Assembly: GCA_965214035.1 (NCBI GenBank)
Contig: OZ243932.1
Span: 1,007,992-1,071,991 of the forward strand
Direction of reading: 5' to 3'
Source: Gammaproteobacteria bacterium
GTDB taxonomy: Bacteria > Pseudomonadota > Gammaproteobacteria > JAJDYQ01
DNA: 64,000 nt
Positions within the stretch are counted from its first letter, which is position 1; each line of letters starts with the position of its first letter. Both the position numbers and the translations under genes were made by a program. Shown piece after piece: positions 3,732 through 56,441 of this stretch. The notes under the pieces are model-generated. The model ran no database searches. It saw nothing but the letters and a program-made list of their open reading frames with translations, and had not been told where the DNA came from.

Positions 3732-3905
3732 TATATACTTAACTCCACTGATTGTCCCTTCGGTTTTTATGCTGATTAGAGTTGAGCAGAAATTAGACAT
3801 TAGCCCTTGATGATGGCAAGTTGCGTGCACAATAGGGGTATTTTTTAGTTTTATTTCTATAGCACCACATTGACAATGCACTTGATATTCTTTTGACTCT
3901 TTCAT
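3723..3905 (-). CDS. Small Cys/His-rich hypothetical protein (60 aa), possible truncated GFA-like zinc-binding domain
   Basis: An AAGGAAAAA Shine-Dalgarno precedes ATG at 3905. The sequence MKESKEYQVHCQCGAIEIKLKNTPIVHATCHHQG... has CxCG...C.HH spacing reminiscent of GFA/CENP-V domains but is too short for a full domain. Confidence 0.2.
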   Translation of the reverse strand: MKESKEYQVHCQCGAIEIKLKNTPIVHATCHHQGLMSNFCSTLISIKTEGTISGVKYISP

Positions 3906-3935
3906 GTTTTTCCTTGTGTGGCCTAACGCCATGCT

Positions 3936-3965
3936 CAGCGGCGCGCGCCTTTGGCGCGTCCGCTG
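3936..3965. repeat. GC-rich REP-like hairpin (13-bp stem with one bulge, loop TTTG)
   Basis: cagcggcgcgcgcc-tttg-ggcgcgtccgctg sits in an AT-rich intergenic stretch. No clear U-tract follows. Confidence 0.4.
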
Positions 3966-3975
3966 AAGCAAATTG

Positions 3976-4203
3976 TTAAGTGTCTTCTTTTTTGATTGTT
4001 CTTACATCCATCAAGCACTTCTTGCCCCTCGGCGTCAGAATCCAGAATAACGCCATCGTACCTCCCCTTGTTTGTAGACTCTCAACTTCAACAAATCCCA
4101 ATGCCATAAGCTGGAGTTTAACTGCTTGAACAACCTCTTCTTCTACTTTTGTACTGAAATACCTATCTGCGTTTGGTAGTGTCTCAGTTTGAAATTTCTT
4201 CAT
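3976..4203 (-). CDS. Hypothetical 75-aa protein
   Basis: ORF directly downstream of the HerA-like fragment. I recognise no family. Confidence 0.25.
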   Translation of the reverse strand: MKKFQTETLPNADRYFSTKVEEEVVQAVKLQLMALGFVEVESLQTRGGTMALFWILTPRGKKCLMDVRTIKKEDT

Positions 4204-4216
4204 ATTTATAATGTGG

Positions 4217-4681
4217 TCATGGTTTACTCTGTTGCCTTAATGCTTGAATGGCTTCTTCCAGAGTATTTTTGTCTTTTTCCTTTGACCATTCAGTCCATAT
4301 ATCAATTGTTGCACTAGCAGGCTTTATTTTTGGCTCTGCCATTTTAATTCTGCTGGGTAATAAGCAAGCATCGCCAATGATCAAGCACTCTCCAATATCT
4401 AAAATAGGTAACAACTCTGAAAAGCCTCCTAAGCTGTCAGGAAATAGCCGTTTTATTACATTTTGGTCATCAGGGTTTGTAAGACGCATGGCGACAAAGT
4501 TGCCACATTGACTTAAGACGGTTTTGCTGACATCAGCAGGCCGTTGACTGATAACAATAAGTGAAACGCCATGTTTTCTCCCTTCCTTTGCTATACGCTC
4601 GAAGTTAAAAAGCCCTTTTGTTTCAATACTGTCTTTAGTATTGTTGGGAATATACAAATGTGCCTCATCACGCGGATTCAA
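4217..4681 (-). pseudogene. C-terminal fragment of a HerA/FtsK-like (DUF87) ATPase, truncated at its 5' end by IS remnants
   Basis: 'GVSLIVISQRPADVSKTVLSQCGNFVAMRLTNPDDQNVIK...LPILDIGECLIIGDACLLP' matches the C-terminal half of HerA-type ATPases. The N-terminal ATPase core with Walker A is absent, and an IS30 fragment abuts the upstream edge. Confidence 0.55.
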
Positions 4682-4965
4682 CTCGCAAGTGCAATCTGTA
4701 GTTTGATTCCTGAAAATGCCTCATTAGGCGTTTTAATGCCAAGACATTTTCCAGGTCGATTATTCAGTCTATTCATGGCTTGCTCAATTTCTCTGTGGGT
4801 AATGGTTGTCAAGTCACCCCCCTTTGGAAAGTACTGTCGGATGAGTCCATTGGTATTTTCATTCAGGCCACGCTCCCATGAAGCATAAGGATGGGCAAAG
4901 TAAAACCGGGCGTTGAGCCTGTTCAGGGCGATAACCACGAAGGCCCGTATTGCGCTGAAGCTCAC
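4678..4965 (-). mobile_element. IS30-family transposase, C-terminal fragment
   Basis: 'YFAHPYASWERGLNENTNGLIRQYFPKG...MNRLNNRPGKCLGIKTPNEAF' is the conserved C-terminus of IS30-family DDE transposases. The catalytic core and N-terminus are missing. Confidence 0.7.
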
Positions 4966-5186
4966 GGCTAATGGTGGATCGACTTCAACCTGACATCATG
5001 GCTATCCCGGATTGGTTATGGCCGGCTTTCTTCAGGGCATCAATCCGGTATCGTTGTTCCTGGGTAAGCTGTTTGTATCTCATCGTGCTCCTCTTTCTTG
5101 GCAGAATGGGAAAGCTGTGAATCATACAGCAGCTTACCCTATCGCCAACTCGTCAAGAGTTGCACTTACAAGTTGAATTCAGGCAT

Positions 5187-5645
5187 CTATATTATACAAG
5201 AATAAACAGAAATGCCGGTAGTGTCACAGTTTGAATTTTTCTTCTTATACGGTCCGCGCTTCTTTCCTTTCGGTTCTCTGTTTTCTATCAGATCGACAAT
5301 AAAACCCATATTGTGCAGCGTATCGGTTAATCCCGCTTCCATTGCCGGCGTGACTTTCAATGTCTTGTGAATACGGCAGAAATTATAAAACATGAAGTAC
5401 AGGGACAACGCATGAATATGGTTGTCGATTTTCTGACTGAATGCGTTGGTCAGCCGGGTGAACCGGCGCATACTCATACGCATGGTCAGGTTATGGCGTT
5501 CAACATAGCTGGTTGATACATGCTCAAACTCAGGCCGACCGATAACATGTTCACGGTGTGCGCCGATGCAAGCTGACGGGCTGTAACTCCGTTGTTCATC
5601 CGCCGGCATGTCGCCATACAACTTGACCAACCAGGCATCATCCAC
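5187..5645 (-). mobile_element. IS1-family-like transposase, C-terminal fragment
   Basis: 'YVERHNLTMRMSMRRFTRLTNAFSQKIDNHIHALSLYFMFYNFCRIHKTL' follows the InsB-like pattern R.NL..R...R.T.AFSK plus the C-terminal Y.NF.R.H motif. There is no full-length ORF. Confidence 0.5.
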
Positions 5646-5696
5646 ATCAGAACCAAAAGCTTCCTCTGCCTGCTTGTATGATATGCAGTCACTGTT

Positions 5697-8600
5697 TCAT
5701 TCATCGGCATACTGCCCGTAGCCCAGCCCACGCACATGCGGTTCCTGGTGCAGCAGCAGTCGCAGCCGCGTGAGCTCGGCGACGTCCCACCCCATCGCTT
5801 CTGCCACGGCTTCATCCCAAATGCGGCGCACTTCGCATTCACCGTCGCGGAATTGCGGTACAACCATGTCCTTGGTGTGGTTCCAACAATGAGCCAACCT
5901 GTCAACGAGAACATTATCGGAGAGATCAGGCAAACGGATGGTTTTCAGGCCCGCAGGGTTGTAATTTGGAAATTCCAAAGTCTTTCCAGGATTGCGCAGC
6001 AGTTGCAACCGCCCCGGGGTTGAGTTGAGAAAGACAGCCGCGGCCTTCGCCTGATTGAACGAGATATTCGGCACCGGCAACCAACCCACGCCGACATACC
6101 GTTCCTCTTGTGCCACGGCCGTCAAACGGCCTGTGCTGGTGCGCTGGCCGCCCGTCACCAGCAGGTGGGAGATTTGGGTCACAATCCGACTGGCATTGTC
6201 AGGGTGGTGCTTGCCATCCACGCCGGGAACCTCAATCCATTCATCCTGTGGAACATGCCTTTGGGGCGCTTGATGCTGATCAGGCATGCCTCGAATGGTC
6301 CGTTGGGCCTCGGCGGACTTGGAATAAAAGACCGGGAAAGCGCCCGGTGCATCTGCGTCAGCCTGCCTGAATTGACCCCGCCTACCCCCACCTAACACTG
6401 CGGATGGCACCATGTTCTGTTCTTCCATCCGAAGAAGCGACTTGTGAGTGGAGATATCGAACGCCGCATTGGCCAGTTCTGGTGATCGAAACACCACCGC
6501 CGTCCAATCGCCAGCCTCAATGCGCTCTGCAGACCAGTAAGAGACCTCGCCCCAACCGTCTGCCATCAGCCCTTGTTCACAGTCCAGCAAGCATCGATGA
6601 AAATCGGCAGCCTCACCATCGTCTGCCGGCATTCTGTCAAGATTGATGAACCGCGTTGGCGGCTTGTCGCCGGCATACCACCGACGCATCACCACGATGC
6701 TCTCGTTGATAGAGGTATGCTGGCTCAGGTTGATGTTCTGAGGCTGGTGCGAGGTCAATATGGTGTGTATATGGAAGTGCTTGGCAAGTGCAAGCCGCTC
6801 GCGCTGACCGGATGGGGTCGTGAGCGCTATGGTCGGGTTAATCATCGTCAGAGTTCCATCGGACCGCTCTACGCAGTGGTCTGCAAGACCAACGAAGAGC
6901 GGTCCGATGGAATTCTTGTCCACGAACTCCATCAGACCGGGGTCGGATTGCGTGAGTTTTTGCTCCATAAAGTCGGCGCGGTCGCGCAGAGCCGTCTGCG
7001 TTTCAGCGGGAAACTTCTCGCCCATCTTGGAACGGTTAGTGAACGGTGGGTTCATGATGATAATGCGCGCTTCCTTAACTGCATCTACGGTATCTTCCAG
7101 TTCGGTGTCGTCCGTCGTCTCCCACGTCGCCCGGGAACCGATGGCATCGTCACCCAAGTCCAGCTCGTTCGGTCTTTGCACGATAGCCCGTTGCCCCAGC
7201 AGCTCGAGTGTGCCAGCGTAGACTCGGTCTGGAGCATGCTTGTCGGGACCGTAGGGCATGAGATGCAGTCCCATTCTCCGGTAGCTGACTCTCTGGTTGC
7301 CCGCGGTTAATTGTGATGCAGCCAGTTGTAGCGACACCGGATTGATATCCAGCCCTTTGAGGGTGTCTTCGACGGCAATTTTCTGAAGCTGATTCAGTGA
7401 TTCGTCGTCTGCGCCATTATCGCGCGCCCTGCGCTTCATGTCGGAAAGCATGGCGGCAAGCAGCGTGCCGCTGCCACATGCCAAATCCACAATCTTGTGC
7501 CGCTGCCAGACTTCAGGGTCAGACCAGTCCTGGTCTCCGCAGGCGTCGAGCGTCAATCGCGCAGCGAGCGAGGCGGCAACGGGTCTGGTGAAGAACGCGC
7601 CGTCGGATGCCTGGTTACCCATGACGCGATTAAAAAGCGGCCCGGCGTGGTCGGCGCCCATATCCGCGTAGGTTTCTGCAATGCGCTCGGCTTCCGCAGC
7701 GAGATGATGCAGGGCGCGTTCGAGCCCGGCAGTCTTTCCTGTCGTCTCAACGGCGTAGATGGCCTCAAGGGCGGGTTCAAGCACCGGGCGGAAGTCGTGG
7801 CGCATGATTCGCTCCCACTCCCGGCTTATCTTCTGCACGACATTAGCCTGATTCTTGATCTGGGCGAGGTCGCTGATGCCCGACAGCCAGCCACCGTTAC
7901 TAATGCGCTGGTGCAGCATGGCGGCATTCATCATCAGCAGCGCAGCGATGGTGCAGCCGTCCGCCTGCTCCTTGCCTGTCTCCTTGAGCCGGTCGAGTCC
8001 GAAATGCTGGTTTAGCGCGGGCAACAATTCATCCGCACGCATGTGGTGCGCCGCTTCGGTCACGCTCGATTCCAGTATATTCAGATCGCGTATCACCCGA
8101 TTGTCGCTCAGCCCGGACTTCGAGAGCAGGTTCATCTTGATGGCGCTGCCATGATCTTCCAGCCCGCTCAGCTTGAGCATGAGTTGCCCCTGTTCCTCCG
8201 CTCGTTCCGTGGCGGTCTTGCGGGGTTTGCGATGGCTGCCCGGCTTCACGCGATTACCGCCCTCACCGGTATTGATCATCTTGCCGGCTTTGGCTTTGGT
8301 TCGCTGTATGTTCACAATGCCCCGCGCCTCGCCTGCTTTTGGCTTGTCGCGGGTTATGGAGTCCTCGCGCAGTTCAACCGTTCCATCCTTGTTTTTCTTC
8401 CCTGTGAGGACTTGCGTCAGCTCCACCGCGCTGTAATCAGCGGGTTCTTCACGGATACGCTGTATGCCAGTCGCAGCGCGGGTCTTGCCTTCCAATGCCT
8501 GTTCGACCGCTGCCTGCGCGGCGCCGGGAGGCCCCTCGACTTCGCCGTACTGTATGCGCATGCCTTCACCCATCGCGACCGCCACCAATGTGCGTTCCAC

Positions 8601-10697
8601 CGGCGGTGGTTTGGGAATGTACAGGTGCAAGAGTTCCTCAAGGTTTTCCTCGATACGCTGGTCGTGGGCGCGCAATGCGAGTAGTATCTGTCCCAACTCC
8701 TGCCACCCTTCCTCCGGGCCGCTGGTGCTCAGCCATTTCTCAGGGTCGGCAGAGGGTGGAAACACAATAGGGCAGACGATGTAGCCCAGCTCCTTGTCGG
8801 GCGCGGTCCGCATCGCTCTTCCGACGGCTTGTACGACATCAATGGGGCTCTTTCGAGCTTCCAGGAACGCCACCGCACTCAATGACGGCGAATCCGTACC
8901 CTCTCCGAATATGCCCACATTGATGATGCCGCGAGGGCTCGCCGCGTCAGCGGCAGCCAACCGTCCCTTCGCGGTTTCACGCGCCGCGGCGTTGCTCGAA
9001 GCGTCCAGGTGTTCGAGGCTGTAATCGGATGCGGCCCTGCCGTCCGCGTTCTCGCTGAGCCAGCGTGAGACCCAATCCTTCACGTTATCGGTCTGGAGGT
9101 CCGCCGCCATGTTCTTCGACTTGTCCACCGTATTCATGAAGGCGATGCACGAGCGGATGTCCACTTCTCTGCCTTGAGTCGCTCCGCCCATCGTGAGAGC
9201 AAACGCCAGGCCCCGAAGATAGTCGATGGTCGTCAGCTGGCCGCGCCCTGTGCTTTTGGTGGCCCTGGCTAGGTCGTTCGCCGTCTTGAACGCCTCGGGG
9301 TCGTTGACGCCCATAGCGATGATACGGTAGTCGGACAGCCAACGGTTACGGACTGCTTCCAGGTAGCTCTTGCGGTACAGTTCCACCCCGAAGGTGGTCT
9401 CGTCGTCCATCGAGCGCACTATCCAGTCTGGATTACCGGTGGCGCGCTTGACATCATAGATGCGCGGCGTTGCTGTTTGATAGATGCGGTACGTAACAGG
9501 AAACCTGTCGCTGTCATGGCAAATCGTGAAGTCTCGGAGACGCTTTTCCTTTTCGTTTGCGGCGGCAGACCTGGAGTTCCTGCGCTTTAGCCCTGCCGTC
9601 CTGTGTGCTTCGTCGGCAACCATGACACACGCCCTGACATCGGCGCTCAACAGGGCTTCCGATACCTTGGTGCTGCTCTGGTAAGTGCCAATGAGAACCT
9701 TGATCCCGTTGTCGATAGTGCTCTGGCGCATCCAGTCGACTATTTCGCCGGCATCGGTGGTCACCTTACCCTTCACTTCGGAAGCGCTGACATTACTGTT
9801 ATCGACGGTCGGATCAAGTGTGGTGTTGCGGCGTCCTTCTTTCCTGGGGGCATAGCCCGCCGTGACGTCCGAGCAGACTGCCAGCACGTCCAGGGAAACT
9901 GAAGCGTGTTGCAGGCATTCACGCCTTATCTGGGCAACCAGCGCGATGGACGGACACAGCACGATGGATAGCTTGCCCGGAGGCGTCAGTTCTTCGATGA
10001 TCCGGAGCGATATACGAGTTTTTCCTGTCCCGCAGGGCAGGATGATTCTACCTCGGGCCTCACCTATCGGTAGTCCACCGCTCTCCGAGCGTTCCTGTTC
10101 CCTGAGTATGCGGACACTGTTGGCAACGACTTCGTTTTGCATGCAGTTTTTTGTCTGCAGCCGTTCTTCGCCGTGGGGGTTCGGTTGGCAGTGTTCGCAC
10201 TCCCCGGATGCGGCTTGTGCCTGCCGCTGCTGAAGAAGATCGCTGGTGATGTTGACCAGCTTGAGGGGCTTTGGGTGCATTGATGCTGATTGCGTCGCGC
10301 CACTGGCAAGTGGATTATTGCCATTGGTAACGATCCAGCGCTCGGCCCAGGAGTCTGAACCGGACGCAGCCGCGAATTTGGCTATCTCGTTGCTATGGAT
10401 TGGGCCGCCGCGCCCCTCGTCGTCAAGCCGGCGCGACTTGCACTGGATTGCGATGTATTTCCCGTCGTTGCGACGCACGGCTACGGCGTCTATTCCCACA
10501 TCCAGCTTGGTGGTTTTAGGAAAGTGTTTCTTTCTATCGGGCCACTTGTCCCAGTGCCAGCACTCCGCGATGTCCCACTCCTTTATGAAAGGAGCGGAGT
10601 CCACAGTAATGTCTTCCAGCCATTTGCCATTGGTCTCCTGCGAGTTAAACTCGGCTGTGTCCTTTAGCGCCTTTTCGATGGTCTCTAAGCCGGTCAT
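5697..10697 (-). CDS. Single-polypeptide restriction-modification enzyme with Type ISP layout: Mrr-like nuclease, SF2 helicase-like ATPase, gamma-class N6-adenine methyltransferase, target-recognition domain
   Basis: 1666 aa. The N-terminal PD-(D/E)xK Mrr-like region reads 'KLDVGIDAVAVRRNDGKYIAIQCK'. Walker A is 'ILPCGTGKT' and the DEAH box is 'VMVADEAHRT'. MTase motif I 'VDLACGSGTLLAAM' precedes motif IV 'IIMNPPFTNR' (NPPF), the gamma-class order. About 400 C-terminal residues are consistent with a target-recognition domain. Size and domain order match LlaGI/LlaBIII-type enzymes. Confidence 0.85.
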   Translation of the reverse strand: MTGLETIEKALKDTAEFNSQETNGKWLEDITVDSAPFIKEWDIAECWHWDKWPDRKKHFPKTTKLDVGIDAVAVRRNDGKYIAIQCKSRRLDDEGRGGPIHSNEIAKFAAASGSDSWAERWIVTNGNNPLASGATQSASMHPKPLKLVNITSDLLQQRQAQAASGECEHCQPNPHGEERLQTKNCMQNEVVANSVRILREQERSESGGLPIGEARGRIILPCGTGKTRISLRIIEELTPPGKLSIVLCPSIALVAQIRRECLQHASVSLDVLAVCSDVTAGYAPRKEGRRNTTLDPTVDNSNVSASEVKGKVTTDAGEIVDWMRQSTIDNGIKVLIGTYQSSTKVSEALLSADVRACVMVADEAHRTAGLKRRNSRSAAANEKEKRLRDFTICHDSDRFPVTYRIYQTATPRIYDVKRATGNPDWIVRSMDDETTFGVELYRKSYLEAVRNRWLSDYRIIAMGVNDPEAFKTANDLARATKSTGRGQLTTIDYLRGLAFALTMGGATQGREVDIRSCIAFMNTVDKSKNMAADLQTDNVKDWVSRWLSENADGRAASDYSLEHLDASSNAAARETAKGRLAAADAASPRGIINVGIFGEGTDSPSLSAVAFLEARKSPIDVVQAVGRAMRTAPDKELGYIVCPIVFPPSADPEKWLSTSGPEEGWQELGQILLALRAHDQRIEENLEELLHLYIPKPPPVERTLVAVAMGEGMRIQYGEVEGPPGAAQAAVEQALEGKTRAATGIQRIREEPADYSAVELTQVLTGKKNKDGTVELREDSITRDKPKAGEARGIVNIQRTKAKAGKMINTGEGGNRVKPGSHRKPRKTATERAEEQGQLMLKLSGLEDHGSAIKMNLLSKSGLSDNRVIRDLNILESSVTEAAHHMRADELLPALNQHFGLDRLKETGKEQADGCTIAALLMMNAAMLHQRISNGGWLSGISDLAQIKNQANVVQKISREWERIMRHDFRPVLEPALEAIYAVETTGKTAGLERALHHLAAEAERIAETYADMGADHAGPLFNRVMGNQASDGAFFTRPVAASLAARLTLDACGDQDWSDPEVWQRHKIVDLACGSGTLLAAMLSDMKRRARDNGADDESLNQLQKIAVEDTLKGLDINPVSLQLAASQLTAGNQRVSYRRMGLHLMPYGPDKHAPDRVYAGTLELLGQRAIVQRPNELDLGDDAIGSRATWETTDDTELEDTVDAVKEARIIIMNPPFTNRSKMGEKFPAETQTALRDRADFMEQKLTQSDPGLMEFVDKNSIGPLFVGLADHCVERSDGTLTMINPTIALTTPSGQRERLALAKHFHIHTILTSHQPQNINLSQHTSINESIVVMRRWYAGDKPPTRFINLDRMPADDGEAADFHRCLLDCEQGLMADGWGEVSYWSAERIEAGDWTAVVFRSPELANAAFDISTHKSLLRMEEQNMVPSAVLGGGRRGQFRQADADAPGAFPVFYSKSAEAQRTIRGMPDQHQAPQRHVPQDEWIEVPGVDGKHHPDNASRIVTQISHLLVTGGQRTSTGRLTAVAQEERYVGVGWLPVPNISFNQAKAAAVFLNSTPGRLQLLRNPGKTLEFPNYNPAGLKTIRLPDLSDNVLVDRLAHCWNHTKDMVVPQFRDGECEVRRIWDEAVAEAMGWDVAELTRLRLLLHQEPHVRGLGYGQYADE

Positions 10698-10734
10698 ACT
10701 ATATTATGCCCCATTATTCAGAGATTGACCAACC

Positions 10735-10932
10735 TCAGGAAAGCCTGGACAAAGCCCGAACAATGGATGTTTTACCCATACGCTCACGGAAAAGATTGGC
10801 TTCTCGTTTCATGGCTTTATTGGCCACTGCAACATCGGCCTGAAACCGTTCGGAAGACAGTAAATTGATATAGCTCTCCATGACCCTGGAAGCGGGCGCG
10901 AAGGAATCTTCACATCCATGATTAAAGCGCAT
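10735..10932 (-). CDS. Hypothetical 65-aa ORF immediately upstream of the Type ISP gene
   Basis: ORF only. I recognise no family. It may be a gene fragment. Confidence 0.15.
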   Translation of the reverse strand: MRFNHGCEDSFAPASRVMESYINLLSSERFQADVAVANKAMKREANLFRERMGKTSIVRALSRLS

Positions 10933-11070
10933 ATTGGCTTCTTGGGTTATCTGACGTTACCGACCTGAAAGGCACCCACCAAACCCGAAAAAGCCCCTTC
11001 CACCGTACAACTGAAACAAGACTGGAAACGGGTCAAAAGGTTTGTGCAGGCTCGTAGTGGACTTTTCACA

Positions 11071-11113
11071 AGCAGGAAAAACAAAAATTCGGGGCATTAA
11101 GTATATAATTCCC
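11071..11113 (+). repeat. Dispersed 43-bp repeat, copy A (AGCAGGAAAAACAAAAATTCGGGGCATTAAGTATATAATTCCC)
   Basis: Matches the inverted copy at 51544..51586 with 2 indels. Shorter TTAAGTATATAATTC-like cores recur at 53524-53539, 3731-3742 and 44201-44211. Confidence 0.7.
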
Positions 11114-11205: not shown

Positions 11206-11430
11206 TCATGCATGGTTTTTGATGACCAGCGTCTTGATCATCGATGTACGCCTTTGGCGCATTTGAGATAATACTTGCCGGTTCGTATCAGGCCGCTTGT
11301 GATTGTAATGCCAAAGCCAGCATGCGACAAGCTCCTGCATACTCAAATCGGCATTGTGTGAGTCGGCTATAACATACTGCTCGACATAAGCATTTTGCTG
11401 CGGCTTGCCCGATTCAATAATTAACTGCAT
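11206..11430 (-). mobile_element. IS3-family transposase (OrfB/integrase core) C-terminal remnant
   Basis: 'SGKPQQNAYVE...WLWHYNHKRPD' corresponds to the rve-domain tail GKPxQNAxIERFN...W..YNxERPH. The ORF starts at an ATG immediately after the dinG TGA stop, in the same frame. Confidence 0.45.
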
Positions 11431-30961: not shown

Positions 30962-38554
<7,593 letters not shown>

Positions 38555-48369: not shown

Positions 48370-49140
48370 TTAGTGCAGTGTTTCCGTTTGTTGTTCTGGC
48401 GAGGTCTGTTCTCCAGTCTGGCTGTCTGCTTCAGCCAGTGTATCTGATTCTTCTATTGCTGCTTCGGCAGGCTTATCTCCCCTGCTCTCATGTTTTTTCG
48501 TGACAGGATTGTCACTGAGATCCAGTTCGGCGTTGATGGAGTCAACATCACGTAGTTCTTCCAGTGAAGGTAGTTGTGTCAGAGATTTAAGATTGAAGTA
48601 GTCCAGAAATTCTCTGGTTGTGCCGTACATTGCCGGCTTGCCAGGCACATCACGATGGCCCACAACCCGTACCCATTCGCGTTCCTGAAGTGTTCTGATA
48701 ATATTGGAACTCACGCTGACACCCCGAATATTCTCAATTTCTCCCCGCGTAACCGGCTGCCGATAAGCAATCAGGGCCAGTGTCTCCAGTAATGCGCGCG
48801 TATAGCGTGTTGGCTTTTCTTCCCAGAGGCGCGAAACCCATGGAGCCAGCTCTTTCCTGACTTGCAGGCGATAACCTGAGGCGATCTGTTTGATTTCAAT
48901 ACCACGTTCTTTGTACTCTTCATTCAGCACATGGATGGTTTTACGTATCACATCACGGTCCGGTACGGCATCGTCCGCAAAAACAGCAATAATATTATCC
49001 AGTGTCAATGGCTTACCGGCCGCCAGCAGCGATGCCTCGATAATGTTTTTAAGATCTTTTTCTTGCATATCCTGGCCTTTGGTAATATCTATTAATGATC
49101 TGTTTTTACGCTTCATCACTCTGAAATGAGGCTTCCTCAT
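48370..49140 (-). CDS. scpB: Segregation and condensation protein ScpB
   Basis: 'IIEASLLAAGKPLTLDNI' and two winged-helix domains, with an acidic C-terminus. The start is probably internal and overlaps the scpA end. Confidence 0.85.
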   Translation of the reverse strand: MRKPHFRVMKRKNRSLIDITKGQDMQEKDLKNIIEASLLAAGKPLTLDNIIAVFADDAVPDRDVIRKTIHVLNEEYKERGIEIKQIASGYRLQVRKELAPWVSRLWEEKPTRYTRALLETLALIAYRQPVTRGEIENIRGVSVSSNIIRTLQEREWVRVVGHRDVPGKPAMYGTTREFLDYFNLKSLTQLPSLEELRDVDSINAELDLSDNPVTKKHESRGDKPAEAAIEESDTLAEADSQTGEQTSPEQQTETLH

Positions 49141-49975
49141 TTTTAATTTTTACATGTATTTCAGAGTAAATTTCGGTCTGCTGGACAATAATCAGATTTT
49201 CTTTTATTAACTCAAGAATGGCCAGAAAGGTCACAACTATGCCGATGCGCCCCTCTTGGCGATCAAACAGGGATCGAAAGGTGGTAAATTTATCCTGCGA
49301 CAGGCTTTCCATCATATTTGACATGCGCTCTCGAACCGAGAGCGGCTCCATCTGTACATGATGATGTTCGCTCATTGCCGCCCGCTGCATCACTTCGGCA
49401 AAAGCCTTTAGCAGGGATTTCAATGGCACTTCAGGAAGTTTGCGTGTCACAATTTTATCAGCCACATCTATGGTCACCTGAAATGTATCGCGCATCATGC
49501 GAGGAAGTTGATCCATATCTTCAGCCGCTTTTTTATATCGTTCATATTCCTGCAATCGACGAACCAGTTCGGCACGCGGATCGCCATCCTCGTCTTCGTC
49601 TTTATCGGCCGGGCGGGGCAGCAACATCCGTGACTTGATCTCAGCCAGCATGGCTGCCATCACCATGTATTCAGCGGCCAATTCAAAGGACATTTCATGC
49701 ATCATTTCAATATAGGCGATGTATTGCGTTGCAATACTGGCTACCGGTATATCAAGAATATCCAGATTCTGACGGCGAATCAGGTACAGCAGCAAATCCA
49801 GAGGACCTTCAAATGCTTCCTCCAGAAAAATTTTCAGTGCCTCTGGAGGTATATATAGATCACGGGGAAGCTCTGTTATTGCTTCTCCCTGAACAACGGC
49901 AAACGGCATCTCGTTCTGTGCCGGATGCTGCTCATATTCGTCTTTAGCCTGCGCTTCGGTCACTGATTCTGACAT
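49106..49975 (-). CDS. scpA: Segregation and condensation protein ScpA (kleisin)
   Basis: 'FEGPLDLLLYLIRRQNLDILDIPVASI' kleisin N-terminus, 289 aa. Confidence 0.85.
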   Translation of the reverse strand: MSESVTEAQAKDEYEQHPAQNEMPFAVVQGEAITELPRDLYIPPEALKIFLEEAFEGPLDLLLYLIRRQNLDILDIPVASIATQYIAYIEMMHEMSFELAAEYMVMAAMLAEIKSRMLLPRPADKDEDEDGDPRAELVRRLQEYERYKKAAEDMDQLPRMMRDTFQVTIDVADKIVTRKLPEVPLKSLLKAFAEVMQRAAMSEHHHVQMEPLSVRERMSNMMESLSQDKFTTFRSLFDRQEGRIGIVVTFLAILELIKENLIIVQQTEIYSEIHVKIKNEEASFQSDEA

Positions 49976-50062
49976 CCAATTAAAGAGTGCACAGGCACCC
50001 TGTATATACCGGATATGGCAGAAGGCATCCTGACACCGCTGAAGTGAAAATAATACACGGCA

Positions 50063-51277
50063 TCAGTAGCTCAGACCCATGGCATGATTAACCTCATCCA
50101 TGGTTTTACGCGCCTCGTCACGCGCCTTTTCACTACCTTCGTTGATAATGTTTCTCACCAGATCGGGCGACTCTTCATAAAGTTGTGCGCGCTCTTGTAT
50201 CGGCGACAGTTCTTCACGAATGGCCCGGGTGATATGTGACTTACAATCAATACAGCCAATCGCAGCCGAACGGCAACCCTCCTGTATCTGTTTTTGCAGA
50301 TCATCTGCAGAATAAACCAGATGCCATTGCCAGACCGGGCATTTGGCCGGGTCACCAGGGTCGGTACGTTTGACTCGCGCCGGATCGGTCGGCATGGTGC
50401 GTATTTTTTGCTCAACCTCATCTTCTGTATCCCGTAACGAAATTGTGTTGTTATAAGACTTGGACATCTTCAACCCATCCAGACCAGGCATTTTAGATGT
50501 ACTGGTCATCAATGGCTGTGGCTCTGGCAGTATCATTTTGCCGCTACCCTCAACATAACCGAATAGACGCTCCCGGTCGGCGATAGTGATGTTCTGCTGC
50601 CCTTTCAGCAGCTCACGGGCCACCTCCAGTGCCTCCTTATCACCCTGCTCCTGATATTTCGTCTGCAGGTCGTTGAAAAGTCTGGCATTTTTCTTACCCA
50701 TTTTTTTGATCGCCACTTTAGCCTTACCCTCAAAGTCCGGTTCACGCCCATAGAGAAAATTAAAACGGCGGGCAACCTCGCGCGTCAATTCGACATGGGC
50801 AACCTGATCTTCACCAACCGGCACCCAGCCAGCACGATATGCCAGAATATCGGCACCTTGCAGTAACGGATAGCCAAGGAATCCATACGTGGAAAGGTCT
50901 TTCCCTCTCAGTTTTTCCTGCTGGTCCTTGAAACTCGGCACACGCTCCAGCCAGCCCAAAGGTGTAATCATGGATAGCAGCAGATGCAGTTCAGCATGTT
51001 CAGGAATACGCGATTGAATAAATACTGTCGCCGCACCTGGATTTACACCCGCAGCCAGCCAGTCAATTATCAGTTCCCAAACGCTTTTGCCAATAACATC
51101 GGGGGCTTCATAGTGTGTGGTCAGTGCATGCCAGTCGGCAACAAAGAAGAAGCAATCATATTCATGCTGCATCTCAACCCAGTTTTTCAATACGCCATGA
51201 TAATGACCCAGATGCAACCGCCCGGTCGGGCGCATGCCGGATAAAACACGGCTGTTGGCACTAACAAGAGAATTCAA
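50063..51277 (-). CDS. trpS: Tryptophan--tRNA ligase (long form)
   Basis: Class I 'TGRLHLGHYHG' and 'KMSKS' present. 404 aa with a C-terminal extension. Confidence 0.9.
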   Translation of the reverse strand: MNSLVSANSRVLSGMRPTGRLHLGHYHGVLKNWVEMQHEYDCFFFVADWHALTTHYEAPDVIGKSVWELIIDWLAAGVNPGAATVFIQSRIPEHAELHLLLSMITPLGWLERVPSFKDQQEKLRGKDLSTYGFLGYPLLQGADILAYRAGWVPVGEDQVAHVELTREVARRFNFLYGREPDFEGKAKVAIKKMGKKNARLFNDLQTKYQEQGDKEALEVARELLKGQQNITIADRERLFGYVEGSGKMILPEPQPLMTSTSKMPGLDGLKMSKSYNNTISLRDTEDEVEQKIRTMPTDPARVKRTDPGDPAKCPVWQWHLVYSADDLQKQIQEGCRSAAIGCIDCKSHITRAIREELSPIQERAQLYEESPDLVRNIINEGSEKARDEARKTMDEVNHAMGLSY

Positions 51278-51543
51278 GAGATTTCCTTAATTTAAGGCAA
51301 ACTGTTCAAAATCAGCTAACATATCCACCTGCCGATTGGGACCATTTTACCACAGTGGGCTGAAAACGACCTGCCATTATGAATGATGGTACGCGAATAG
51401 CCTATGGCTTTCCCTGCCATTGAAAAACCTGTTCCAAAGTCCATATGCCATGTTCAGGAGGTGATGAGAAGTCATTTCCAATCATCTCAAGCTGTTTTTG
51501 TTTTGATTGAACTCGTCAATCACATTGATCAGGTAATAAGAAA

Positions 51544-51586
51544 GGGAATTATATACTTAATGCCCCCGATTTTTGTTTTTCCTGCT
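51544..51586 (-). repeat. Dispersed 43-bp repeat, copy B (inverted relative to copy A)
   Basis: The reverse complement reads AGCAGGAAAAACAAAAATCGGGGGCATTAAGTATATAATTCCC. Confidence 0.7.
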
Positions 51587-51729
51587 TACCTTCTGACCAG
51601 CTTCCATCGTTGTTTCAGTTGTGCGGTGGAGGGGGCTTTTTCGGGTTTGGTGGGTGCTTTTTCAGGTCGATAACGGACGATTTGTCGGACAGCACTTTGA
51701 AAGTCTTTTAGCGATGGGCGTTTGCTCAT
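51586..51729 (-). CDS. Small basic ORF (47 aa) with a strong SD, ending inside repeat copy B
   Basis: AGGAGAGAAAAGT-ATG. The sequence MSKRPSLKDFQSAVRQIVRYRPEKAPTKPEKAPSTAQLKQRWKLVRR has its TAA stop overlapping the first bases of the repeat. Confidence 0.2.
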   Translation of the reverse strand: MSKRPSLKDFQSAVRQIVRYRPEKAPTKPEKAPSTAQLKQRWKLVRR

Positions 51730-51821
51730 ACTTTTCTCTCCTTTGGAATGATCCATATATCTATACTCAATCCCGAAAAATACAATGCGCACTGACTTTG
51801 CTACAATAAGGAGGCTTTGAT

Positions 51822-52498
51822 ATGGAAACCGGAGGAAAGATGCCGAGCAAATTCCATAAAACAGGTTCTCAAGAGACAAGTCATTCTGCGGGGAGTCCCT
51901 TCCGTGCTTTTTTGACCCGACTAGGCATCCGAGCAGCAAACACTTGTGAGAAAGGACCGGATTTGAAGAGATTGTCCAATGGTTTATTGAGAAGGATAGT
52001 ACCCAGTCCCGCCATTTTTCGCAGGTATGGATGTGGGATAAATGGCCCCACAATGAGGGGCAACGTGATACAGGGATAGACCTGGTTGCCCAAAAACGTG
52101 ATAGCAGCGAATGGGTCGCCATTCAATGCAAGTTTTATCGTGAAGGCGTGGCATTGCAACGCGATAATATTGACTCATTCCTGGTCGCTTATGAGCAGTC
52201 GCACAACGGAGAAAATTTTGCCGAAGGTATCGTGGTATCGACCACGAATCACTGGGGCAAAAATGCAGAAGCAGCCTTGAAGGGGCGCGATAAACCGGTC
52301 GCTCGCTGGGGGATCGATGTTTTTGAAAACTCCTCTATTGACTGGGAACGTTCTTCACTCGCCTCGCTTCGGAGAAAAGAGACCAAACAACTGCGTGACT
52401 ATCAACAGCAGGCTTTTTTTGTGGTCATTAAAGTATGCTCTCTATCTCACCCGCATATTGCCCATAACCCAAACCACGCACATGCGGTTCCTCATTAG
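51822..52498 (+). pseudogene. Truncated and frameshifted N-terminal fragment of a second Type ISP-like enzyme (Mrr-like nuclease domain only)
   Basis: 'METGGKM..SQET' is followed, after a frameshift near 51930-51950, by 'WMWDKWP...DTGIDLVAQKRDSSEWVAIQCKFY...LRDYQQQA'. This parallels the N-terminus of the 5697..10697 protein (WHWDKWP...VGIDAVAVRRNDGKYIAIQCK). It ends just after the helicase Q-motif. Confidence 0.6.
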
Positions 52499-52503
52499 GA
52501 TGC

Positions 52504-53412
52504 TCAATGGCATGCCGAGAACTCGACATCCAAACGGTATTGCACCAACTCTATGGGAGGATTTTTTGCCGCCTCCTGTTGCACATCAGAGTCTAGTTTT
52601 CGTGCGCCACCATGAATGAGTATGCCTCGCACAGGTTGTTTGCTTTCGCACTTATATCGTTCGAGGTAGTGGCGTAGCTGTTTTACATGTTCAGTTGTGG
52701 GTGAGTGTTGTTTACACTCAACGATAACTGCCTGATCGCTGCGGTCGATGAGGAGCACATCCGCTCTAGTTTTATCATCAAACACTCGTTCCCTGACTTT
52801 CTGGCTTGGATGCGTGAGCAGTCTGTCTTCCAATCGATAGGGATATGCAGCAATGTAGTCAGAAAGTGCTCGCTCGGAGCTGAATTTGGTCGTTAGTAGC
52901 CCAACCCAATTCGCCGGGTTATTCATGATTTCAACAATCTCATCCCAGCTCCTGGAGCGAAGTTCACAAACTGTCGTTCGAATTTCCCATCGGTTCAGGT
53001 GCATTGATTCAGGAATCTTCACTACCATGTCACGGTCATCGGGACCCACCGTAAGGTCCCACCGGACAAAAATCCGCCGACCCATTTCCCCATCGGAGTC
53101 TTCTTCCGTTTTAGGAACTAATGGATCCCAGTCTTCATCTTCGATAGCTTTGCCCGTCACCTCACCGACACGCCCTAATCGATGACCTCTGAGTTGAACT
53201 ATCACTTTGTCCCCAACAGAAATTCTTTCCAGTGCCTTTCGGACTCGCCTCCAGCCTATACCCCCATCTGTTTCTCCACGCAATTTATACCCCCACGAAC
53301 CTTTCCAGCCAACAGCGACACACTGATTCAAGAACCAGCGTTGCCACATGCCTGGATATTCATTCTCCATGCAATTAACTTTCCAGACAGTCATACTGAT
53401 ATGCCTCACCAA
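52504..53412 (-). CDS. Two-domain protein with a PUA/EVE-like N-terminus and a PD-(D/E)xK nuclease C-terminus; candidate modification-dependent (Type IV-like) restriction nuclease
   Basis: The N-terminus 'TVWKV...YPGMWQRWF...VAVGW...GDKVIVQL..HRLGRVGEVTG...RIFVRWDL' follows the EVE/PUA-like pattern. The C-terminus 'ADVLLIDRSDQAVIVECKQHS' is a D..D/E.K nuclease signature. No MTase partner is present. Confidence 0.45.
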   Translation of the reverse strand: MVRHISMTVWKVNCMENEYPGMWQRWFLNQCVAVGWKGSWGYKLRGETDGGIGWRRVRKALERISVGDKVIVQLRGHRLGRVGEVTGKAIEDEDWDPLVPKTEEDSDGEMGRRIFVRWDLTVGPDDRDMVVKIPESMHLNRWEIRTTVCELRSRSWDEIVEIMNNPANWVGLLTTKFSSERALSDYIAAYPYRLEDRLLTHPSQKVRERVFDDKTRADVLLIDRSDQAVIVECKQHSPTTEHVKQLRHYLERYKCESKQPVRGILIHGGARKLDSDVQQEAAKNPPIELVQYRLDVEFSACH

Positions 53413-53718
53413 TAAGTATAAAGTGAATAGGATAGTTGGGTTATGACTTATATGTCAAGGCCGGCAGCGTGAAAACCGTCGATATCGTCAAGGGATTGCT
53501 TGAATTAACCGATTTTTTGTACAATTAAGTATATAATTCGCCTATAAAAACCAGACTATTGACTGTAATTTATTGTTTTTATCTATCTTCCATCTCGGTC
53601 AGGTCTTCAACACCTGCCATATCTGCAAGTGCTTTAGTAAATGGCGTTTTTGTAAAAATTAAAAAATAAAATTAATGCTGTTCGGCGAGGTGATACTTCT
53701 GGCTAACCAAGTGTGTCA

Positions 53719-54042
53719 CTATCTTGAAAATTGTTCATCGATGAAAGCCTCTTTTTCTGCCTTGCTCAGTTGCTTTATCCGATATTCAAGTCTGGATGCT
53801 TTGCTGCGGTTATCTGCTCTTTGGTACCATACCATTCTCAATGGTCCTTTGCCACGTAGTGATTTTGCTCCTTTACCCTGTTTTCCTCGATGCTCATCAA
53901 ATCGCCTTTGCAGGTCGGTCGTAATACCGGTGTAAAGATTCCCTTTCCGGCAGCGGATTATGTAAACCCACCATTTTTGATTAGGTGATTTATCCCGTGA
54001 TTTTTTATAGGCTACACCCGATGTGGGCTTTATATCAGTCAT
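53719..54042 (-). CDS. GIY-YIG nuclease-family small protein (YhbQ/UPF0213-like) with an N-terminal extension
   Basis: 'WWVYIIRCRKGNLYTGITTDLQRRFDEH...GAKSLRGKG' matches the GIY-YIG core. Confidence 0.8.
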   Translation of the reverse strand: MTDIKPTSGVAYKKSRDKSPNQKWWVYIIRCRKGNLYTGITTDLQRRFDEHRGKQGKGAKSLRGKGPLRMVWYQRADNRSKASRLEYRIKQLSKAEKEAFIDEQFSR

Positions 54043-54093
54043 GCGGTAGTTATGATCCAATACTGTATTCAGTATAGATGCCATTGATCGATG

Positions 54094-55767
54094 CTATCTG
54101 CTGACCTTTGCCCAGCTGTCACGGAGACTGATGATACGATTATAAACCGGATTATCGCCATGTTCCGGGATGTGGTTCAGGGTAAAGTAGCCAAGCCTTT
54201 CAAACTGGAAGGCATCTTCAACCGACGCATCCGATAAACCAGCTTCCAGCTTGCAGCCCTGTAATATTTGCAATGAACCCGGATTCAGTTCATCATGCAC
54301 ATCATTGGCAACCCAAGGTGTTGGTGTGCTGAATAACCGATCATAAACATTAACCTGGGCATCGATAGCATGATTGGCACTGACCCAGTGGATGGTGCCC
54401 TTTACTTTACGTCCGTCTGCGGTACCACCATGGCTTTCAGGATCGTATGTTGCCCTGAGTTCCATGACATTGCCGTCATCATCCCTGACTACCTCGGTAC
54501 AGGTAATATAGTAGGCGAAGCGCAGGCGGACTTCACGCCCCGGAGACAGGCGGAAAAACTTTTTCGGTGCATCTTCCATGAAGTCGTCACGTTCAATATA
54601 AATTTCCCGGCTGAAAAATATCCTGCGTGTACCAAGTTCAGGCTTTTGTGGATGGTTGGCTGCTTCAAGTTTTTCTTCGCGACCTTGCGGATAGTTTTCG
54701 ATAATCACTTTTAATGGATTCAGGACTGCCAGACGACGCGGGGCATGTTCATTCAAGTGCTCACGGACCGAGTTTTCCAATACATCTATTTTGATCGTAC
54801 TGTCTTTTTTGGTAACGCCAATAATTTCACAGAAACGTCGAATGGCTTGTGGCGGATAACCACGTCGGCGCATACCGGAGATTGTCGGCATACGCGGGTC
54901 ATCCCAGCCATCTACAGTGCCATCTTCCACCAGTATATTGAGTTGACGCTTACTGGTAATGGCGTATTCAAGCTGGAGACGTGCAAACTCAATCTGCTGA
55001 GGCTGGCAAGGCGTGGAAAGTACGTCAAGCACCCAGTCGTACAAGGGTCGGTGGTCCGCAAACTCCAGTGTGCATAGCGAATGAGTAATACCTTCTATAG
55101 CATCAGAAAGACAGTGTGTGTAATCGTACATTGGATAAATACACCATTGATTACCTGTCTGGTGATGTCTCGCATGCTTGATACGGTATAGAACCGGGTC
55201 ACGCATATTCAGATTGGACGAGGCCATATCAATTTTTGCGCGTAGAACTCGACCACCATCGCCAAATTCCCCCGCCTTCATACGACGGAACAAATTGAGA
55301 TTTTCTTCGGTTGAGCGGTTTCTATGGGGGCTTTCGACGCCTGATTCAGTCAAGGTGCCACGTGTCTGGCGAACTTCGTCCACACTTTGATCGTCAACAT
55401 AGGCTTTTCCATGCTGAATTAATTGCTCGGCAAACTGGTATAGCTGTTCGAAGTAGTCTGAAGCAAAATGCAGTTCATGCCAATCATAGCCCAGCCAGAC
55501 AATATCCTGTTTAATCGCCTCGATATACTCTCCTTCTTCTTTTTCTGGATTGGTATCATCAAATCGGAGGTTACATCGTCCTGAGCAGGATTTAGCTATA
55601 CCAAAGTTTAAGACGATAGATTTTGCATGACCAATATGCAAATAGCCATTGGGTTCCGGCGGGAAACGAGTAATTACTCCATCAGGATTTTTTGCCACCG
55701 CGATATCAGAGTCAATGATATTGCGGATAAAGTTGGGCGGGGTGTCCGTTGTTGATTGTGATGACAT
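54094..55767 (-). CDS. glnS: Glutamine--tRNA ligase
   Basis: 'NFIRNIIDSD...TRFPPEPNGYLHIGHAKS' HIGH motif and 'VMSKR'-type region. Probable start MSSQSTT. Confidence 0.9.
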   Translation of the reverse strand: MSSQSTTDTPPNFIRNIIDSDIAVAKNPDGVITRFPPEPNGYLHIGHAKSIVLNFGIAKSCSGRCNLRFDDTNPEKEEGEYIEAIKQDIVWLGYDWHELHFASDYFEQLYQFAEQLIQHGKAYVDDQSVDEVRQTRGTLTESGVESPHRNRSTEENLNLFRRMKAGEFGDGGRVLRAKIDMASSNLNMRDPVLYRIKHARHHQTGNQWCIYPMYDYTHCLSDAIEGITHSLCTLEFADHRPLYDWVLDVLSTPCQPQQIEFARLQLEYAITSKRQLNILVEDGTVDGWDDPRMPTISGMRRRGYPPQAIRRFCEIIGVTKKDSTIKIDVLENSVREHLNEHAPRRLAVLNPLKVIIENYPQGREEKLEAANHPQKPELGTRRIFFSREIYIERDDFMEDAPKKFFRLSPGREVRLRFAYYITCTEVVRDDDGNVMELRATYDPESHGGTADGRKVKGTIHWVSANHAIDAQVNVYDRLFSTPTPWVANDVHDELNPGSLQILQGCKLEAGLSDASVEDAFQFERLGYFTLNHIPEHGDNPVYNRIISLRDSWAKVSR

Positions 55768-55914
55768 CTTGGCAGGCAATGGTAAAAAAGCGGATTCTAT
55801 CACCGCCCGATGCGGATGTAATGATGTTTAAGGATTATGCGTCAGCCGTCTAAGGGTTGGCCGCTCTCATCAAGCACGCCGAATCCAGTGATGGTTGTCA
55901 TAGCTCTATCGGGT

Positions 55915-56235
55915 TTACTCCTTGGGCCGTAAACCCCAGTCGTCGGCTTTTCTGACACGCGGATCCATCAAGATCGAATATAGGTAGGATGGCCCTCGAA
56001 GGTGCTGAATAGGCGACGTGTTTTCAAGGGGAAGATACTCCAGTGCTTTGAGAAATTCGGAGCGAGCGATGTTTTGATTGATCCCCTCCGGGACAATCGC
56101 ATTGCCGACGACCGTATAGATGTACTCCTTTCCGCGAATTTGGCGAAAGGTCTCACCCTCAAGCACCTTGATTCTCGCCCAGACTGTATCGATTGAAATA
56201 TGAGTGTAATGATTTTTTTTCATGCTTCTTCTCAT
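55915..56235 (-). CDS. Hypothetical 106-aa protein
   Basis: ORF with no recognised family. An unannotated 49-codon ORF lies downstream on the plus strand (56281-56430). Confidence 0.25.
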   Translation of the reverse strand: MRRSMKKNHYTHISIDTVWARIKVLEGETFRQIRGKEYIYTVVGNAIVPEGINQNIARSEFLKALEYLPLENTSPIQHLRGPSYLYSILMDPRVRKADDWGLRPKE

Positions 56236-56441
56236 TGTTATAAAGGGATAGCCTAATCTATCACAAAATGTTCCCTGAATTATGGAAAATCAAAAGATAA
56301 AATCTCCCTTTCTGAGCATGGTGCAGGAGCGCTTGCAGCGATTAAGTTATTCTCTTGAGATCGAAGAAAGTGACTTAAATTGGATATGGAGCCGCCTTGA
56401 GCTGATGGTGTGGCGCGGGCCAAAACGATAAGGCATTCAGC

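Follow-up and report, generated by a model that had tools for sequence, protein, structure and literature searches.

The 64,000-nucleotide (nt) stretch of contig OZ243932.1 analysed here (assembly GCA_965214035.1 of a gammaproteobacterium, positions 1,007,992 to 1,071,991; below called the window, in whose numbering all positions are given) carries between its trpS and glnS genes several pieces of large restriction-modification genes. The first of these is the 5' part of a Type ISP gene; intact Type ISP enzymes are single chains of ~1600 amino acids (aa) uniting an Mrr nuclease, an SF2 translocase, a coupler, an N6-adenine methyltransferase and a specificity domain (domain list in PMC4666363). 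It is followed by an intact gene in the opposite orientation, coding for a fusion of an EVE/PUA-like domain with a NucS-like nuclease (EVE-NucS), by the tail of a different large gene lying behind EVE-NucS, and by what is probably the 3' end of the Type ISP gene itself. The locus is framed by terminal repeats of the IS1595 type, IS standing for insertion sequence. Another large gene of the window, an open reading frame (ORF) of 1666 aa, is framed in the same way and served as the comparator. The coordinates of all these features are collected in Table 1.

Table 1. Features of the trpS-glnS locus and of the comparator gene, with their positions in the window and the basis of each assignment.
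Feature	Position	Strand	Basis or remark
Strain-variable segment, trpS to GIY-YIG/glnS	51437..53734	.	blastn against the scaffold L081
IS1595-family terminal inverted repeat GGGAATTATATACTTAATGCCCC (51544-51566) and subterminal repeat	51544..51675	+	Motif counts; blastn E 6e-30 against 11113-10955
Lysine/proline-rich ORF of 48 aa, strong Shine-Dalgarno sequence	51589..51734	-	Divergent from the 5' stump; its 3' half falls within the subterminal repeat
5' part of the Type ISP remnant, unshifted frame	51822..51955	+	Translation; tblastn of the relatives L009 and L017 (51855-51995)
One-base deletion (frameshift)	51954..51957	+	Overlap of frames 1 and 3
Continuation of the Type ISP remnant after the shift (Mrr-family PD-(D/E)xK nuclease domain, linker and the helicase start LRDYQQQA)	51956..52432	+	Pfam, LlaBIII, tblastn
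3' end (~16-20 codons: EEPHVRGLGYGQYAGEIESIL, then stop) of a second large gene from the same family as the 1666-aa ORF	52435..52493	-	blastn, family C-terminus motif
EVE/PUA-like and NucS-like PD-(D/E)xK nuclease gene, intact	52504..53394	-	296 aa from ATG 53394; TTG 53412 would give 302 aa
Promoter-like TTGACA-18 nt-TATCCT upstream of EVE-NucS	53429..53458	-	Consensus scan, 10/12; consensus match only
Probable 3' end (~20 codons) of the Type ISP gene (SVKTVDIVKGLLELTDFLYN, then stop)	53466..53528	+	C-terminus alignment, profile search
Second IS1595-type terminal repeat, inward-facing	53519..53541	-	17 of first 18 bases; overlaps the TAA that closes the Type ISP tail
IS1595-type end sequence GGGAATTATATACTTAAT			
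Single-chain protein of 1666 aa: Mrr nuclease, SF2 helicase, N6-methyltransferase	5697..10697	-	Type ISP-like in residues 43-689 only; inside the IS1595-type-repeat-bounded element 3726-11113

The ATG at 51822 is preceded 7 nt upstream by a good ribosome-binding site, AAGGAGG, and the first piece of the remnant runs from this ATG through a conserved E-K-G. Translated in frame 1, it reads METGGKMPSKFHKTGSQET...FRAFLTRLGIRAANTCEKG, with a read-through to ...SPFRAFLTRLGIRAANTCEKG; the peptide of frame 3 is TGFEEIVQWFIEKD...VWMWDKWPHNEGQRDTGIDLVAQKRDSSEWVAIQCKFY...KQLRDYQQQA. Direct reading places the lost base in aaagg^accgg, and the addition of one base at this point recreates the K-G-x-x-F-E motif, with its spacing, that is invariant in the family alignments. 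The frame opened by the well-initiated ATG closes at 52079. In tblastn searches with six full-length Type ISP relatives the matches lay in frame 1 at 51855-51995 and in frame 3 from 51956 or 51962 to ends between 52414 and 52432, the homology stopping 4-10 codons past the Q of LRDYQ. The surviving 5' stump corresponds to the first ~205 codons, ~13% of the gene. Once the frame is repaired, the resulting 225-aa sequence matches Pfam Mrr_cat_2 over model positions 2-123 of 127 (E 5.5e-38, 130 bits, within the 121-175 bits of intact relatives) and residues 32-185 of LlaBIII (PDB 4XQK; E 1.7e-18) in an alignment that includes LRDYQQ(T)A, a similarity to the Type ISP nuclease which is far beyond chance. 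Equivalents of all five catalytic residues of LlaGI, E38, D74, D78, Q92 and K94 (PMC3553963), are kept, in the FEE, RDTG, GID and IQCK segments of the LlaBIII alignment. From the SF2 helicase-like ATPase that should follow the nuclease only LRDYQQQA is left, with no Walker A motif by family alignment and tblastn. Neither coupler, nor gamma-class N6-adenine methyltransferase, nor specificity domain was detected by tblastn with the six full-length relatives, the sole exception being a C-terminal tail of ~15 residues at 53466-53528.

These results confirm the two peptides and the frameshift quoted in an earlier note on this DNA, as well as its assignment of the fragment to a Type ISP N-terminal nuclease domain. 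The same note had extended the Type ISP fragment to 52498 and let it end at the helicase Q-motif, exactly where the convergent nuclease gene terminates; Type ISP homology is, however, already over at 52414-52432 and the stop codon of EVE-NucS lies at 52504, about 60-70 nt further. The annotated 155-aa ORF at 52031-52498 starts inside the nuclease domain, past the Glu of KGxxFE (the E38 equivalent), has no convincing ribosome-binding site and contains no Type ISP sequence beyond 52414-52432, and annotators should be aware that this 'restriction endonuclease' is a fragment. Since the helicase, methyltransferase and specificity domains are missing and the frameshift parts the start codon from the E38-equivalent Glu, the remnant is to be regarded as a pseudogene, predicted to be unable to restrict or modify DNA. 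Cleavage by Type ISP enzymes needs a translocase-driven collision (PMC3553963, PMC4666363), a mechanism impossible for the remnant because the translocase and all later domains are gone.

The protein search with the fragment listed only proteins shorter than 310 aa, for which reason the architecture of its relatives was taken from fetched genomic loci; 590 genomic matches were confirmed and the best 80 loci kept for reading-frame analysis. The ORF itself aside, nothing above ~50% identity was present among the protein matches listed, and several of the short ones are frameshifted fragments with out-of-frame tails or with the start of ResIII. The best 80 of the 590 loci are 38-52% identical to the fragment, with metagenome-assembled genomes of Chloroflexota on top, and the reading frame through the match exceeds 1550 codons in 63 of them. 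Five relatives out of five tested, from Chloroflexota, Pseudoxanthomonas and Ca. Venteria, carry Mrr_cat_2, ResIII, Helicase_C, ISP_coupler, N6_Mtase/Eco57I and Type_ISP_C, and the closest ones, at ~50% identity, are ~1600 aa long and complete in their Type ISP architecture. Because the closest full-length relatives carry the domains that define Type ISP (listed in PMC4666363), the fragment can be assigned to the 5' ~13% of a canonical Type ISP gene, from which it evidently derives.

The full-length relatives also gave, by tblastn, a faint match of the extreme C-terminus of one of them at 53466-53507. When the C-termini of the 63 long frames were aligned, a conserved ending, ...VSVxTVxIVxxLPxL, became apparent. 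The closest counterpart of the window tail is that of the relative L017 (SVKTVDIIEGLPELPAA, then stop), with 11 of 14 residues alike; L017, a Type ISP relative, belongs to the bacterial class that also supplied the best N-terminal matches. A hidden Markov model (HMM) of 60 C-termini, run against all six frames of the window (116,860 residues), had its best match here (12.4 bits, E 0.014) and the next one at 5.7 bits, the maximum in a control six-frame translation of 1.24 million residues being 9.8 bits. The match lies on the same strand as the stump, 1 kb downstream of it; it ends 5 codons before a stop which is itself within a few codons of the position of the stop in the relatives. The two remnants are collinear, the 5' and 3' ends following each other in the right order on one strand. 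The segment 53466-53528 is thus probably the surviving 3' end of the same Type ISP gene, which would have been hollowed internally, ~4.2 kb (helicase, coupler, methyltransferase and specificity domain) now missing; this is proposed with some reserve, as only ~15 residues align.

Between the two ends, the EVE-NucS gene is a full-length member of a family of ~295-aa proteins (996 matches at E <= 1e-3, the best 120 listed being 55-80% identical). Pfam recognizes only the NucS_C PD-(D/E)xK domain in its product, and D212, E226 and K228 are invariant in the family. Structure comparison gave an EVE plus a NucS fold, in agreement with the name 'EVE-nuclease' under which the gene had appeared in the earlier note; in the protein, a sensor domain of the PUA superfamily (EVE/YTH-like) is joined to a nuclease whose catalytic motif is intact. 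Modification-dependent endonucleases with PUA/EVE domains include the EVE-HNH enzyme VcaM4I and fusions of PUA with PD-(D/E)xK domains (PMC6765204, PMC7897488). By analogy, the EVE-NucS architecture is that of the modification-dependent (Type IV) PUA-domain endonucleases, modification dependence itself being putative. Homologs are solitary and located in islands rich in toxin-antitoxin genes and IS. The DNA similarity to the closest homolog, L085 (80% identical), is confined to the ORF plus or minus ~10 nt. The consensus scan that yielded the promoter-like sequence found fewer sites in the region than in shuffled sequences.

The spacer of about 60-70 nt that separates the EVE-NucS stop from the last Type ISP homology can be identified, from its sequence, as the native 3' end of another member of the 1666-aa family, in the orientation of EVE-NucS. 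A segment of 46 nt (52447-52492) is 85% identical to 5701-5746, the 3' end of the 1666-aa gene (blastn E 2.4e-9), and the nine differences within 16 codons comprise seven synonymous and two non-synonymous ones. The 1666-aa ORF ends with QEPHVRGLGYGQYADE and a stop; its last 500 residues, used as the query, retrieved 786 relatives, many of them 1640-1720 aa long, and the C-termini of this family share a conserved ...LLHxEPHVRGLGY(G/N)QYADE, often followed by VEIE.... The Type ISP tail and the foreign tail both point away from the EVE-NucS gene, which now occupies the place where the two large genes would have had their bodies. No contrast in GC content between remnant, insert and flanks was found, the AT-rich margins at 53350-53800 excepted.

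Two ideas on how EVE-NucS came to its place were tried and rejected. Homing of EVE-NucS into Type ISP genes is not borne out by four homolog loci (L085-L088), which have no remnants of Type ISP or of the 1666-aa family nearby. A mobile unit around EVE-NucS is likewise contradicted by the narrow limits of the similarity to L085, where no flanking inverted repeats were found either. It is also worth noting that an imperfect inverted repeat (15/19, with the 10-nt perfect core TTGGGTTATG) occurs at both ends of the EVE-NucS insert: its left arm, 52454-52472, lies within the LGYGQY codons of the foreign tail, and its right arm, 53436-53454, codes for LGYDLY in the reading frame of the Type ISP tail. 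The repeat may represent a microhomology of recombination, or may have arisen by chance (rough p ~0.05).

The whole locus is bracketed by a perfect 16-nt inverted repeat (51546-51561 and 53524-53539), and the longer repeat shared by 51544-51675 and 11113-10955 lies 5' of both large genes. Four copies of the motif GAATTATATACTTAAT occur in the window at up to three mismatches, where chance would give 0.21; the remaining two copies, at 3728 (+) and 11096 (-), face inward around the 1666-aa gene, and inward orientation is common to both loci. A metagenome scan for GGGAATTATATACTTAATGCCCC returned four contigs of one assembly (L089-L092, JAAGOD01), in each of which this 23-mer is the exact border of shared inner and unique outer DNA; in one of them a 310-aa ORF with DDE_Tnp_IS1595 (E 7.5e-44) and Zn_ribbon_IS1595 starts 105 nt downstream of the 23-mer. 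Because the 23-mer ends a transposase-encoding element in these contigs, the GGGAATTATATACTTAATGCCCC motif is identified as a terminus of the IS1595 family. By the ISfinder end consensus, the repeats of the window may belong to the ISNwi1 subgroup of IS1595. An interpretation of the 16-mer as a promoter or operator (it reads TATAAT on one strand) was superseded by its identification as an IS1595 terminus. The metagenome element with the same 23-bp termini is apparently longer than its transposase, no right end being present within 190 nt past the stop; in L089-L092 a different ORF tail (...NKEYLV, then stop) runs into the other terminus, and a passenger gene is possible. The IS1595 family includes members with passenger genes, according to Siguier et al. 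(2009) as cited in PMC12561309 and PMC2853133.

An 8-bp direct repeat is typical of IS1595 (PMC12561309), and the 7,388-bp unit around the 1666-aa gene, 3726-11113, has 8-bp flanks (CAAAATCA and CAAAATTA) that agree in 7 of 8 positions; in appearance it is a non-autonomous transposon that carries a restriction-modification gene as its passenger. In tblastn of the metagenome transposase against the window no IS1595 transposase was found in either unit; the transposase remnants that were identified are an IS1-like fragment at 5187-5645, within the unit 3726-11113, and a fragment of an rve_3 integrase just outside it (11206-11430). The units of the window thus share the 23-bp terminus of an element with DDE_Tnp_IS1595 and Zn_ribbon_IS1595, but differ from IS1595 elements in having no transposase and in carrying a large restriction-modification gene, or its wreck, as cargo. 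The 48-aa ORF that overlaps the left subterminal repeat has no credible Pfam match, and its copy at 11 kb has no intact ORF; it was rejected as a conserved partner or controller gene and is probably a chimeric leftover. The shared upstream repeat is not a known RNA, since Rfam gave no RNA family for the whole window at the gathering threshold or for 51250-54120 at E <= 1.

TrpS of the window is 74-75% identical to the proteins of Sulfuriflexus and Thiolapillus, which marks the host as an uncultured gammaproteobacterium. Among the relatives compared, the adjacency of trpS and glnS was found only in the window and in one close relative, more distant ones having other trpS neighbours. The close relative, the metagenome scaffold L081, codes for a TrpS that is 97% identical, and its DNA is 93-95% identical to the window over 49000-51436 and 53735-55778; no similarity to 51437-53734 was detected in it by blastn. 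Its own interval contains an EcoRI-methylase fragment, Methyltransf_21 fragments and a C-terminal fragment of an IS1595-type transposase. A full-length Type ISP gene between trpS and glnS, which the earlier note had proposed to look for in related strains, was not found: L081, the sole close relative with this arrangement, lacks Type ISP. Judged by the sequences compared, the trpS-glnS site is a strain-variable dump of restriction-modification debris. Next to glnS, ~650 bp (55779-56429) are also absent from L081, a second small strain-specific insertion or deletion; a 106-aa ORF within it (55915-56235, minus strand) has no Pfam or PADLOC match.

The evidence described above makes it very likely that what lies at 51822-53528 was once a single canonical Type ISP restriction-modification gene, now wrecked and with its interior replaced. 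The suggestion of the earlier note that an ancestral Type ISP system had been replaced or disrupted here is upheld by the complete architecture of the relatives, the probable C-terminal tail beyond the nuclease gene and the different content of L081. From the observed identity, positions and orientation of the pieces, the intactness of EVE-NucS and the variability of the site between strains, the following course of events may be proposed. The Type ISP gene would have arrived as the cargo of an element bounded by IS1595-type repeats. Its ~4.2-kb interior would have been swapped for ~1 kb in the opposite orientation, the EVE-NucS gene with the foreign tail behind it, the resident gene keeping its ~205 first codons, in which one base is now missing, and probably its last ~20. 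Such a state could have been reached by serial overwriting, Type ISP by a gene of the 1666-aa family and the latter by EVE-NucS, or by the import of EVE-NucS and the foreign tail as one piece; the two orders of events appear indistinguishable here. The Pfam score within the range of intact relatives and the single frameshift suggest that the decay is recent.

Several observations weigh against this reconstruction. The match of the tail comprises only ~15 aligned residues and overlaps the IS terminal repeat, so it could be fortuitous. The flanks of the 1,998-bp unit 51544-53541, ATAAGAAA and CTATAAAA, agree in 5 of 8 positions, which is not significant in AT-rich DNA, and strain-specific sequence continues beyond the repeats for another 107 nt and 193 nt; because it does so, arrival by transposition is unproven for this locus. 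Neither a full-length relative more than 50% identical nor a strain with an intact gene at the site was found, and the ancestral state is a reconstructed one. Finally, the source appears to be a single 2.5-Mb contig, in which a lone frameshift could be an assembly error, yet the gene would not be rescued by its removal.

If the tail at 53466-53528 were a chance match or an IS leader, the Type ISP gene would only have been truncated at its 3' side, EVE-NucS and the other gene's tail having been joined to it by a deletion or rearrangement. Such a view would accommodate the shortness of the match with its window-wide E of 0.014, the location of the last codons of the tail inside the IS terminal repeat, and the start of EVE-NucS 129-147 nt inside the repeat, similar to the 105 nt at which the metagenome IS transposase starts. 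It is made improbable by a match that is the best among 117,000 window residues and above all 1.24 million control residues, that lies downstream on the correct strand and stops short of its stop codon just as in the relatives, and that is closest to a Type ISP relative from the very class of the best N-terminal matches. It is very improbable that the fragment or its 155-aa ORF is a functional stand-alone gene for an Mrr-type nuclease. The five catalytic equivalents are there, the frame is open over 51956-52498, and many database matches are short proteins of 150-300 aa with Mrr_cat_2 only; however, the 155-aa ORF starts past the E38-equivalent Glu with no convincing ribosome-binding site, the frame that does have a good one is closed at 52079, several of the short matches look like fragments of long genes in view of their out-of-frame tails or ResIII starts, the great majority of the best loci have a frame of Type ISP length, and the nuclease of LlaGI and LlaBIII is active only through translocation and the collision of enzymes on DNA (PMC3553963). 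That the gene is really intact, with the frameshift and the junctions produced by misassembly, is hardly credible, even though the contig comes from an uncultured bacterium and frameshifted copies of the gene exist in some related metagenome-assembled genomes, because an artefact would have to account for two junctions with an inverted, intact and conserved gene between collinear remnants on one strand, in a neighbourhood where the long ORFs (1666 aa, 2530 aa, trpS, glnS) are unbroken.

The wreck of a Type ISP gene, as we read this locus, resembles LlaGI and LlaBIII in the N-terminal Mrr-family nuclease with its five catalytic equivalents followed by LRDYQ, and in the five-domain order of its closest full-length relatives (domain list in PMC4666363). 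It differs from them in being reduced to ~13% of the gene, frameshifted and devoid of translocase, coupler, methyltransferase and specificity domain; besides, it shares little identity with the lactococcal enzymes, and its nearest relatives (~50%) come from metagenome-assembled genomes of Chloroflexota. Furuta et al. (2010; PMC2853133) described how restriction-modification genes substitute for one another as alleles of a fixed locus, and also such genes lying between inverted repeats with 8-bp target duplications, which may have been moved in trans. As in those cases, unrelated restriction-modification content is found in two strains between flanks that are 93-95% identical, and terminal inverted repeats enclose the large genes. 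The two 8-bp flanks of the 3726-11113 unit agree in seven positions. Unlike those cases, the repeats of the window can be assigned to an IS family, IS1595, through a transposase-bearing copy, and the substitution took place inside the reading frame of the resident gene, both ends of which were left.

The locus is a new instance of a known phenomenon, the turnover of defence genes, made somewhat more interesting by its layered remnants and the IS1595 frame. About 2 kb keep the ends of what would be three successive defence genes, with identifiable IS ends around them, at a site that varies between strains with ~95% identical flanks, which makes it a clean and datable test case for the loss and replacement of large single-chain restriction-modification genes. 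More speculatively, and with a small chance of being right, the position of EVE-NucS might reflect recurrent overwriting of cassettes in a non-autonomous IS1595-derived carrier (a 'defence slot'), or a modification-dependent EVE nuclease selecting for the loss of resident adenine methyltransferases; cassette swapping or conflict of this kind would mean more than random decay.

The 1666-aa comparator had been described in the earlier note as an intact Type ISP gene of which the fragment was a second, diverged copy. It is indeed similar to LlaBIII (residues 72-660, E 1e-43) and to LlaGI (E 1.3e-42), and hhalign against a profile of 12 canonical Type ISP proteins aligned its residues 43-689 with a probability of 100 (E 4e-59), with nothing past residue 689. 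In its C-terminal 977 residues (690-1666) no Pfam match to ISP_coupler or Type_ISP_C appeared even at E <= 5, the only matches being weak ones to N6_Mtase, MTS and Eco57I. Its best PADLOC model is a 'Type IIG' restriction-methyltransferase profile, of which the first 648 positions were matched. It is thus a single-chain nuclease-helicase-methyltransferase of a sister family (~1650-1720 aa), Type ISP-like rather than canonical, and annotation of this neighbour as Type ISP needs that qualification. The fragment is 40% identical to it over 48 aa (E 6e-9), on account of which the two are considered distant homologs, not recent duplicates. The parallel between the N-termini and their divergence were thus seen correctly, although the likeness of the comparator to Type ISP covers residues 43-689 only. 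As the 1666-aa ORF has neither coupler nor Type_ISP_C and belongs to a separate family, the fragment is the more canonical Type ISP of the two and not a 'second copy'. Of the picture of two Type ISP loci, one of them dead and pointing to turnover, the dead fragment and the turnover remain, and the locus at 5.7-10.7 kb drops out as a canonical Type ISP system.

Gene fragments are abundant around the 1666-aa gene (2884-3354, 4217-4681, 4678-4965, 5187-5645, 11206-11430). Among them, a Type II restriction enzyme is represented by its C-terminal half (PADLOC, E 3e-33) and a HerA ATPase by its C-terminal ~150 aa (E 3.5e-73); a further piece looks, by eye, like the C-terminus of a transposase. The Type ISP frames of the loci L012 and L049, at their 3' ends, and a fragment of the 1666-aa family (P0420) run on into a similar segment of ~100 aa ending in ...WLEWG..NGY, which hints that a small domain or gene is conserved downstream in both families. 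The longest ORF of the window (2530 aa) is located at 30962-38554 on the minus strand.

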